Assembly: GCA_963771045.1 (NCBI GenBank)
Contig: CAVYRW010000004.1
Location: 1,344,001 to 1,408,000 of the forward strand
Length of the DNA: 64,000 nucleotides
Reading direction: 5' to 3'
DNA from: Waddliaceae bacterium
GTDB taxonomy: Bacteria; Chlamydiota; Chlamydiia; Chlamydiales; SLFE01
Made by a program: the position numbers and the translations under genes. The notes beneath the pieces were generated by a model. The model was not told where the DNA came from, searched no databases, and saw nothing but the letters and a program-made list of their open reading frames with translations. This document shows positions 2,797 through 4,563 of the stretch, piece after piece; positions within the stretch are counted from its first letter, which is position 1; each line of letters opens with the position of its first letter.

Positions 2797-3000
2797 ATCT
2801 TTTATCCTTCCTCGTTTTTGATTGTAAGAAAATATTGTACATCTTTTATTAGAAATTTTTCAAGGTCTACGTCGTTTCAGTAATTCCAAATTCAGGCTGG
2901 AGCTTACATTAGGCATGTAAATTTTACCTTGAATTGGCTTTGTTGCGTAATTAACCACAGAGCTCACAAGAGCGCACAGAGAGAATATGAGAGATTTGAT

Positions 3001-3945
3001 TTAAGCTGCTATTAATTCACTTTCAGGCATTCCCAGCTTTGTCATTATATTTAGTGCTTCACATTTTGCCCTTGATTCAGCCCTTTGGGTTTCCAGAGTT
3101 CTACTTCTTAAATCATTTCCAAAGAATCGTTTAAATCTAAACATGGCTGTTTCTGCAAGTGATCGACGATGATAACCTTTCAACTTTTTCCATAATTTTC
3201 TTGCATCATCATCACCTCCTAAACCTGAAATTTCCAGCAAACTGATATTCCGCATCTTCCAAGAAGGAGATATGTTTTCTCGAAAAACAGCATTCCTATT
3301 GGGTGGAATAATAGGAATTGAGCCGTGAACTACATTTGCAGCATAGCATCGCTTAGTATCATAAGCCCCATCTCCATATGTGCGCTTAACTGATTTCGGC
3401 ATTACCTCGAGAAGTTTTGGATACACTTCACAATCTGCAACGTTATTTTCAGTAAGAATTTCGAAAATAATTTCGTGAGAGTCAGGGCAGACTGCCAGAT
3501 GGAGCTTTCTCCATGTTCGCCTTTTACTGATTCCATGCTGCCTAACTTTCCATTCACCCTCTCCGTACACTTTCAAACCGGTTGAATCGATTACAATATT
3601 GGTGACTTTTTTTTTCGAAAGTTTCTTCAACTCTTGCCCCAACAACTTAGCTCTCCGACAAATTTGAGTATAAGAAGGAATCGATAAACCAACAGATAAA
3701 ATCATAACAAGAGATGTCAAAAATCCTTCGAGTGCTCTCAATGGAAGATGAAAAACCGATCGAATAATGAGCGCGGTGAGAATAGCGTCATCAGAATAGA
3801 GTTTTGGACGCCCCTTTTTTCCTATTTCTTTTGGAGCCATCCACTTATTGATAGCATCTTCAGAAAACCAAACAGTTATGCTTCCCCTTTGAATAAGAGA
3901 TTTGTTATAGTCGTTCCAGTTGCGAATGCGATATTTTGCCTTCAT
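3001..3945 (-). CDS. IS5-family (IS903 group) DDE transposase
   Basis: NW..YN..L..RGS.T.W, IDSTGLKVYGEGEW, RRTWRKLHL, DGAYD, YHRRS.AET.MFR.K motifs. Confidence 0.95.
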   Translation of the reverse strand: MKAKYRIRNWNDYNKSLIQRGSITVWFSEDAINKWMAPKEIGKKGRPKLYSDDAILTALIIRSVFHLPLRALEGFLTSLVMILSVGLSIPSYTQICRRAKLLGQELKKLSKKKVTNIVIDSTGLKVYGEGEWKVRQHGISKRRTWRKLHLAVCPDSHEIIFEILTENNVADCEVYPKLLEVMPKSVKRTYGDGAYDTKRCYAANVVHGSIPIIPPNRNAVFRENISPSWKMRNISLLEISGLGGDDDARKLWKKLKGYHRRSLAETAMFRFKRFFGNDLRSRTLETQRAESRAKCEALNIMTKLGMPESELIAA

Positions 3946-4029
3946 CTTGATCCTCCAATTTGTTGCAACTAAAAATTAGAGTATTAGGTATTTGTCGGCA
4001 AGCTCGCATTCGCCCTTTTTGGAGAAAAG

Positions 4030-4437
4030 ATGACTAGTACCCACACAACTGAAGAAGCCAACCAAAAAAGAAATGACCTTTTAACAGGGGAAATCATAGG
4101 TGCTGCGATTGAAGTTCATCGAAGATTAGGTCCAGGCTTGCTTGAATCGACATACGAAACTTGTCTTTGCTACGAGTTGAACCTTGCGGGTTTGAAAGTT
4201 AACCGGCAGATACCAGTACCTATTATTTATCGTGATAAAAAGCTAGACTCAGGCTACCGGATCGATATGATAGTGGAAGATAAGGTTATTTTGGAGATAA
4301 AATCTGTGGCCAATTTCTTGCCTGTTCATGAGGCCCAACTTCTATCCTATCTTAAGCATAATGGTGGTGGCAGAGGTTTGCTCATCAATTTCAATGTAAA
4401 ACTTCTAAAAAATGGGATTAGGCGTCTAATCATTTAA
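4030..4437 (+). CDS. GxxExxY protein (PD-(D/E)XK nuclease-like fold)
   Basis: IIGAAIEVHR.LGPGLLESTYE..L..EL, YRID.IVE..VILEIKSV, H.AQLLSYL, GLLINFN. Confidence 0.92.
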   Translation: MTSTHTTEEANQKRNDLLTGEIIGAAIEVHRRLGPGLLESTYETCLCYELNLAGLKVNRQIPVPIIYRDKKLDSGYRIDMIVEDKVILEIKSVANFLPVHEAQLLSYLKHNGGGRGLLINFNVKLLKNGIRRLII

Positions 4438-4563
4438 TTCCTCTCTCATAATCTCTCAGTGAGCTCGGTGGTCTCAGTGGTGATTTATGCAACAACGCCC
4501 CTTGAATTTAGGGTTTCCTCCGTTTAAAAAAATGCCAACGTTAAGATAGAAAATTATTTGTAG

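Follow-up and report, generated by a model that had tools for sequence, protein, structure and literature searches.

An IS903-group insertion sequence fused with a GxxExxY repeat cassette in a Waddliaceae genome

A 64,000-nucleotide stretch of a Waddliaceae genome (assembly GCA_963771045.1, contig CAVYRW010000004.1, positions 1,344,001 to 1,408,000 of the forward strand; hereafter the window) carries two copies of a 1,564-bp insertion sequence (IS) in which an IS903-group transposase gene and a gene for a GxxExxY protein share one pair of terminal repeats. We found that this element is an IS903-derived transporter IS (tIS) fused with a GxxExxY repeat cassette, and that it is real, active and old. 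The fusion is revealed by short repeat arrays just inside both terminal repeats, which are of the type that flanks free-standing GxxExxY genes. Together with movement of the whole unit, repeated capture of such cassettes by other ISs, gene-less derivatives and mosaicism, these arrays lead us to read the passenger as a probable second selfish cassette that hitchhikes on the IS and is not needed by its transposase, a reading to which we assign a probability of roughly 55%.

Structure and recent movement of the element

One copy in the window is the reverse complement of the other, the two agree at every base, and they lie in different 9-bp target-site duplications (Table 1). The transposase and GxxExxY open reading frames (ORFs) diverge and are unbroken in both, as the first-pass annotation of this DNA had described. 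That annotation left out the arrays of three CAC(A/C/T)GAG-type units with a GAGA-rich tail that lie inside each 18-bp repeat and are key to the element.

Table 1. Coordinates of the two element copies and their parts within the window
Feature	Position	Strand	Remarks
9-bp target-site duplication CCTTGAATT, left	2927..2935	.	copy 1
IRR, IS903-type terminal inverted repeat by transposase 3' end	2936..2953	+	14/18 match with other end; IS903B end taken from L463
Subterminal array A: three CAC(A)GAG-type units and GAGA-rich tail	2954..2994	+	arm type of free GxxExxY genes
IS5-family, IS903-group DDE transposase, 314 aa (D120, D192, E265)	3001..3945	-	NF033579 289 bits; 45% identical to IS903B
Promoter-like TTGCCG-17-TAATTT 5' of transposase	3973..4001	-	common to plain relatives; putative function
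GxxExxY / PDDEXK_3 protein, 135 aa, predicted PD-(D/E)XK nuclease (E39, D79, E89, K91, Q103-x3-Y107)	4030..4437	+	TIGR04256 147 bits, PF13366 141 bits; prediction from model, fold search and conservation
Subterminal array B, inverted partner of array A	4442..4481	-	usual position downstream of GxxExxY genes
IRL, terminal inverted repeat on transposase 5' side	4482..4499	-	16/18 match with IS903B end
9-bp target-site duplication CCTTGAATT, right	4500..4508	.	copy 1
9-bp target-site duplication AAGTTGAAC, left	27429..27437	.	copy 2
Second copy, identical; GxxExxY 27500-27907 (-), transposase 27992-28936 (+)	27438..29001	-	
9-bp target-site duplication AAGTTGAAC, right	29002..29010	.	copy 2

Across the 2.57-Mb genome of the window (G000), 16 full copies lie on three contigs, 0-2 differences apart. 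All 16 carry both genes, and 12 are bounded by a perfect 9-bp duplication, every one different, which bears out the earlier proposal that the two genes move as one unit. The four copies lacking a duplication could not be paired by swapped flanks. Insertion sites are both intergenic and within long open frames, and the 16 target 9-mers show no consensus; target specificity and a preference for landing beside arrays were rejected on these grounds. Six point variants separate the copies, five of them silent and one producing a family-consensus leucine; the nuclease gene holds three, two silent and one to the family-consensus residue. A 1-bp deletion within a T run of the transposase gene marks a single copy. 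Further traces in this genome comprise one fragment without ends and short remnants, and no intact free GxxExxY gene was found there. A chimeric copy (contig C4:1701314-1704285) is 78% identical to the element over 1.2 kb on its left and 100% identical over its last 349 bp; a single 9-bp duplication surrounds the whole, and an IS256-type element sits in the GxxExxY motif region exactly where the identity switches.

At two further loci (L032 and L034) the transposase is 100% identical and the flanks are only 72-81% identical to G000, where the corresponding sites are empty, a combination suggestive of recent horizontal spread. One metatranscriptome dataset yielded a single contig of 217 bases, 97% alike, too little for a statement on expression. 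An assembly artefact was ruled out by the distinct flanks of the 16 copies and by contigs from other public runs, which span nearly the whole element and stop where it stops. Chance adjacency of the two genes was likewise rejected, given the 16 copies and the same gene pairing in relatives.

The transposase belongs to the IS903 group, in agreement with the first-pass assignment. Its match to NF033579, an IS5-family model, is well above the cut-off of 140 bits; its identity to the IS903B transposase extends over 312 residues; and its DSTG, DGAY and AETAM motifs align with IS903B, as do D120, D192 and E265, which we take to be the catalytic triad. The two element ends match the IS903B end (from L463) at 14 and 16 of 18 bases, and neither end sequence nor duplication length departs from IS903. 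The group's rows in Table 2 of PMC3281130 give lengths of 1050-1054 bp and 9-bp duplications. Like IS903B, ISPam1, ISPpa8 and others in that table, the element has a single-ORF DDE transposase, GGC(T/G)TTGTTG ends and a 9-bp duplication. Unlike the plain form, which measures ~1050 bp and encodes a transposase alone, it spans 1,564 bp with a second, divergent gene, and we therefore file it as an IS903-derived tIS. Its ends reach to ~60 bp through the CAC(A/C/T)GAG arrays, which plain IS903 relatives lack.

Of 26 transposase upstream regions, from cargo-bearing and plain elements alike, 13 contain a promoter-like TTG(C/T)(C/T)(C/G)-17-TA..T motif, compared with 0.6% in shuffles. Because this motif lies ~40-47 bp from the left repeat in plain elements, the cassette evidently occupies the stretch from that repeat to the promoter-like site. 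A promoter scan returned 4 sites versus 4.2 expected. A composite transposon was ruled out, there being one transposase and one pair of ends.

The GxxExxY protein and its repeat arms

The second ORF matches TIGR04256 and PF13366 over its full length and above their cut-offs, with G36-E39-Y42 as the GxxExxY motif (atlas 0.98). Its structure model has a predicted local distance difference test score (pLDDT) of 88, and most top matches in fold searches are PD-(D/E)XK proteins, among them Cas4, Hjc, AddAB and restriction enzymes, with none standing out. Among 150 cluster representatives, D79 is conserved in 146, E89 in 145 and K91 in 144; the set of E39, D79, E89, K91, Q103 and Y107 is kept in 139-146, and in every IS-borne row that covers these positions. 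On model, fold matches and conservation, the protein is predicted to be a PD-(D/E)XK nuclease. A sequence search of solved structures returned only RelE, at E 0.37 or worse, which we treat as noise. Cas4 proteins carry a four-cysteine Fe-S cluster. An assignment to Cas4 was rejected: only C45 and C47 are present, PADLOC gives Cas4 at E 0.014-0.017, and PF01930 has no match.

The PF13366/GxxExxY family comprises 7,431 clusters at 50% identity (E up to 1e-10), and the function of PF13366 is entered as 'Unknown' in the relevant listing of PMC3424549. Members above cut-off occur in 149 of 400 genomes of the phylum and in 13 of 41 genomes of another. They are rare in plasmid records (8 of 72,556), and with the query used neither viral contigs nor phage records yielded a relative. 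Many proteins of 240-295 aa (P0121-P0136) consist of two GxxExxY domains in tandem.

Most family members stand free with an arm on each side, and the window protein shares both its conserved residues and its flanking arm type with them; in this element the transposase separates the gene from its upstream arm. We scored the inverted repeat between the sequences upstream and downstream of free GxxExxY genes, at a threshold of 30. Inverted CAC(A/C/T)GAG arrays bracket these genes at 35 of 51 loci (55 were given and four skipped), compared with none of 97 shifted controls. Counted among the 35 are a low-complexity match (L029) and a locus that proved to have IS ends (L285); of four non-chlamydial loci, three passed. 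The pairing energy of arrays A and B is -28.6 kcal/mol (500 shuffles reach -18.4 kcal/mol at best), and the single arms are unfolded (z 0.0 and 0.9). No Rfam match pointed to an RNA element. Within G000, 88 of 93 array matches fall inside IS copies, leaving five outside, compared with 0-6 in shuffles.

The neighbours of GxxExxY genes (116 ORFs at 69 loci) vary by locus and are mostly housekeeping genes, otherwise transposases, and an IS903-type transposase adjoins the gene at just two of the 30 top-scoring loci of the phylum. A free gene whose product is 81% identical to the window protein (L117) is found in the dxr-rseP interval of genome G195, flanked by arms of its own; in G446, of the same genus, this interval is ~545 bp shorter and has no cassette.

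Two further places in the window may be related to such cassettes. At 26715-26878 a 164-bp hairpin with 80-bp arms precedes a leucine-rich repeat gene, and part of it recurs, as a copy at 94%, within a seeming 5' remnant of a free GxxExxY cassette elsewhere in G000 (C4:887.8 kb). At 12091-12246 a hairpin (12091-12157) is followed by 25 bp at 88% to the GxxExxY 5' region; the same interval holds a 78-bp arm inverted relative to 7786-7863. This second place is possibly a cassette remnant, or else a chance resemblance.

Relatives, repeated capture and gene-less derivatives

We compared the element with 160 transposase loci kept from a genome scan (80 of 561 confirmed) and a metagenome scan (80 of 574 confirmed). 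The pairing is not unique to this genome: at transposase identities of at least 65%, 12 of 16 loci carry a divergent GxxExxY gene, five of them as near-copies of the window element. Three of the other four are cut short, and the fourth (L037) has arms, no nuclease gene and a broken transposase start. Between 55 and 65% identity, the gene is present at 2 of 17 loci and 12 are plain; below 55% it is present at none of 127, and 112 are plain. Below 65% overall (n=144), 124 loci have a plain 5' end, two carry GxxExxY and 18 are uninformative or hold other cargo; most relatives in this range that are closer to the element than IS903B is have no such gene. The pairing is kept, with intact GxxExxY frames, in relatives at 66-93% transposase identity, and genomes from other families (G242, G285, G349 and G123) add to its carriers.

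Both genes have been under purifying selection. The Nei-Gojobori ratio of nonsynonymous to synonymous divergence (dN/dS) against the window copy, over five unsaturated pairs, spans 0.025-0.14 in GxxExxY and 0.06-0.12 in the transposase; bootstrapped pN/pS for GxxExxY is 0.08-0.10, with upper bounds no higher than 0.22, and D79, E89 and K91 are intact. In eight elements, the ends beyond the core are more alike within an element (0.78) than between elements (0.67; 3 of 40,320 permutations); this comparison is among related elements, two of which had to be put together from two contigs or two genomes. Synonymous divergences of the two genes are unequal, with non-overlapping intervals, at L113 (0.73 versus 0.33) and L156 (0.18 versus 0.53), indicating that the modules recombine. 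These sequence comparisons indicate that the fusion of IS and cassette is old and that its ends co-evolve.

A transposase tree of 37 rows places 13 arm-bearing and three arm-free rows in one 100/99 clade of 16, a grouping on which a quick tree of 95 rows agrees. A 78/88 branch separates the 13 arm-bearing rows from the rest; one of the arm-free rows, L176, has a complete 5' end free of both cargo and arms. The two-layer layout recurs in a second group (L173 with L416 and L417). A single clade of arm-bearing rows that includes L173 and L417 and leaves out the arm-free trio was rejected by the approximately unbiased (AU) test (p=0.007); the same clade with the trio included was not (p=0.31). Either one or two origins of the layout would fit these trees.

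Other ISs have taken up GxxExxY cassettes as well. At L170, which groups with the plain L120 (100/94), a co-directional GxxExxY gene with an internal hairpin occupies the same cargo slot, and forcing L170 together with the arm-bearing rows was rejected (AU p=5.8e-6). Genome G335 holds a 1.4-kb IS5-family element (NF033580 above cut-off), probably IS427-like given its frameshifted layout, with a whole cassette behind its transposase; it has six near-full copies at 96% identity or more among the 40 scored of 145 candidates, alongside a plain 75% relative. The G335 loci L451-L454 and L457-L462 also include many short units with only the C-terminal part of GxxExxY between arms. In G447, a 1,760-bp IS630-family element (L522:533-2292) carries a whole convergent cassette with arms. 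Among the 40 scored of 76 candidates it has 28 full copies, and all three relatives at 64-68% whose 3' end can be seen are plain.

Consistent with repeated capture, a 46-row GxxExxY tree (LG+G4 on 135 columns, its groups named once the first trees had been seen) shows the IS-borne cargoes scattered among free genes, and a single IS-borne clade was rejected (AU p=2.8e-9). Three free genes without IS ends (L117, L128 and L029) nest in the 98/91 GxxExxY clade of the window lineage. As judged from the sequences and trees, the cassette's entries into the second IS903 lineage, the IS427-like element and the IS630 element are independent of one another. Two other IS903-type elements of ~1.6 kb (L196:42-590 and L199:168-716) hold a divergent gene for a 183-aa SEC-C-motif protein in the same slot.

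We also found derivatives that have lost genes. The hybrid end pattern was searched with the arrays required, which says nothing on whether derivatives preferentially retain them; it occurs in 50 of 401 phylum genomes, 17 of them with at least four matches, and the reversed control gave single matches in 10. Short derivatives of ~70-660 bp account for many of the paired matches. In G167 (two copies of 192 bp) and in G126 (two of 249 bp), such derivatives occupy different sites within different perfect 9-bp duplications and have no intact GxxExxY gene. Deletion derivatives are common in G249 and G349, and a deletion fusing the two genes at a 10-base microhomology occurs in G249 and in one public run. 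These short derivatives resemble mobile insertion cassettes and miniature inverted-repeat transposable elements (MITEs). With MITEs as defined in PMC9330008, many chlamydial genomes contain short hybrid-end derivatives, some in 9-bp duplications; the window element is instead the autonomous parent.

Six genomes (G167, G199, G387, G175, G360 and G255) have 11-37 hybrid-end matches each, many as short MITE-like pairs, and in G167, G175, G360 and G255 our query found no IS903-type transposase. L285 (G349:C82) and L426 (G255:C2) are units without a transposase; besides IS903-type ends they have arms and a GxxExxY gene, which is decayed in L285 and open in L426.

A probable hitchhiking cassette and its rival readings

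If the passenger is a hitchhiker, the DDE transposase would bind the outer 18-bp repeats, cut and join as in IS903, and carry out strand transfer by itself. A free cassette (arm, gene, arm) may have entered the slot between the left repeat and the promoter-like site, after which one arm would have moved, or been copied, inside the far end, leaving arms that bracket both genes. The nuclease most probably binds its own arrays and nicks or cuts nearby. Such action could keep the arms alike, allow the module to swap between related elements and let free cassettes re-emerge, and the gene would be kept intact by selection on array-related events rather than on transposition chemistry.

The first-pass annotation had offered a transporter IS or a two-component element in which the nuclease aids transposition, targeting, maintenance or defence. 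The former stands; that the nuclease serves the transposase does not stand as our principal interpretation, and in our best reading it is not a dedicated partner. Several results weigh against us here. Selection on the nuclease is as strong as on the transposase and exceeds what a decaying passenger would lead us to expect. In a small sample, no element combined arms and an intact transposase with absence of GxxExxY, which fits a need for the nuclease, and gene-less derivatives could be served in trans. The signal of matched ends comes from kindred elements. No clean footprint of a free-cassette insertion was resolved here, G195 and G446 being too diverged to read one. The fold match is middling (best Foldseek E 0.0097; best Z 7.3, with a root-mean-square deviation of 3.2 over 115 residues, tied). 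A nuclease co-opted after fusion might bind the subterminal arrays and help to pair, process or repair ends, or to stay at the donor site, with the lineage now dependent on it. Arms that bracket the whole element and co-evolve would suit such a two-protein transposon, as would the strong constraint, the second lineage with the same layout, the breakage or truncation of all four close loci that lack the gene, and the high copy number of cargo-bearing elements (16 here, 28 in G447). We still consider it unlikely: cargo-free and arm-free L176 sits within the same transposase clade, plain relatives abound, terminal repeats and duplication length are unchanged from IS903B, gene-less derivatives moved, and three unrelated transposase types bear the same kind of cassette in differing positions and orientations.

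Improbable for different reasons is a passenger of no benefit to the IS or itself, whose low dN/dS was inherited through recurrent replacement by free cassettes and whose arms stay alike by ordinary end swapping. Free cassettes do nest among IS-borne ones, the gene trees conflict with synonymous distances, and there is the chimeric copy in G000; moreover, the commonest copies in G335 have ATT where a variant has an ATG start, and deletion derivatives are common in G249 and G349. Set against this are the lack of an intact free donor in G000, the silent or consensus-restoring nature of the three nuclease variants, and frames that stay intact across 66-93% transposase identity. We give least credence to a nuclease that benefits the host by acting against phages or plasmids, or that punishes loss of the element, and that ISs would spread for this reason. 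Repeated capture by different IS families and the breadth of the family across two phyla would fit, but PADLOC yields only weak Cas4 matches, the neighbours at the 69 GxxExxY loci form no defence set, and the element has no partner antitoxin or methylase. Sixteen identical copies would also add little to host function, and the family is rare on plasmids and absent from the phage records searched with this query. For the defence or targeting roles raised in the first-pass annotation, neither PADLOC nor the 16 target 9-mers gave any evidence.

The element can be placed among known systems. tISs are IS derivatives with passenger genes (PMC9330008, in the part that defines them), and here, as in a tIS, the passenger is enclosed by a single pair of IS ends and travels with them. 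A tIS passenger is dispensable; in our data gene-less derivatives moved, possibly with supply in trans, and we encountered no autonomous element that has arms and lacks the gene. Unlike the tIS passengers of that description, this one brings its own repeat arms, now part of both co-evolving IS ends, and is itself likely mobile. REPIN/RAYT systems, as described in the passages of PMC3116915 that concern them, likewise combine a gene for a small DNA-cutting enzyme with short inverted repeats and leave gene-less doublets in related genomes, an analogy only. RAYT is a tyrosine (HUH) transposase, whereas a PD-(D/E)XK fold is predicted here and neither ORF matches HUH; the repeats of that system are palindromes dispersed genome-wide, whereas the arms here are singly unfolded and their matches lie almost entirely inside IS copies. 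We found no IS carrying a GxxExxY gene, nor the cassette, described in the literature; an ISfinder catalogue entry may exist. In the portions consulted, 'GxxExxY' appears as a mere label in 10.1101/2021.01.26.428298 and PMC12085832, and PMC7371123 contains no such element.

The element unites a GxxExxY member, its likely DNA site and a well-studied transposase type in 1.6 kb of actively moving DNA, which makes it well suited to testing a widespread predicted-nuclease family listed without a function. The recurrence of cassette capture, by IS903, IS427-like and IS630 elements, suggests that nesting within another selfish element is a general means of spread, and the fused, co-evolving ends are an example of an IS gaining new subterminal sites. 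A bolder idea, which we hold tentatively and think will more probably fail, is that GxxExxY genes and their inverted arrays make up a hitherto undescribed class of DNA that mobilises itself by means of a PD-(D/E)XK nuclease. Here the class would be fused with an IS903 transposase in two nested end layers, the outer 18 bp for the transposase and the inner arrays for the nuclease; the nuclease would raise the survival or copy number of the element, which would in turn seed new free cassettes.

Three other features of the window were recorded. An IS256-family element begins 64 bp from the first copy (4564-5960; ORF 4666-5913, inverted repeats 4564-4590 and 5934-5960). A serine-recombinase-like gene at 6295-7757 is in two ORFs over a tRNA-Leu gene (7620-7702, minus strand) and is probably the end of an integrated element. 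At 19920-22680 lie two tandem paralogous membrane-transporter genes with 1364-bp spacing, each split into several ORFs.

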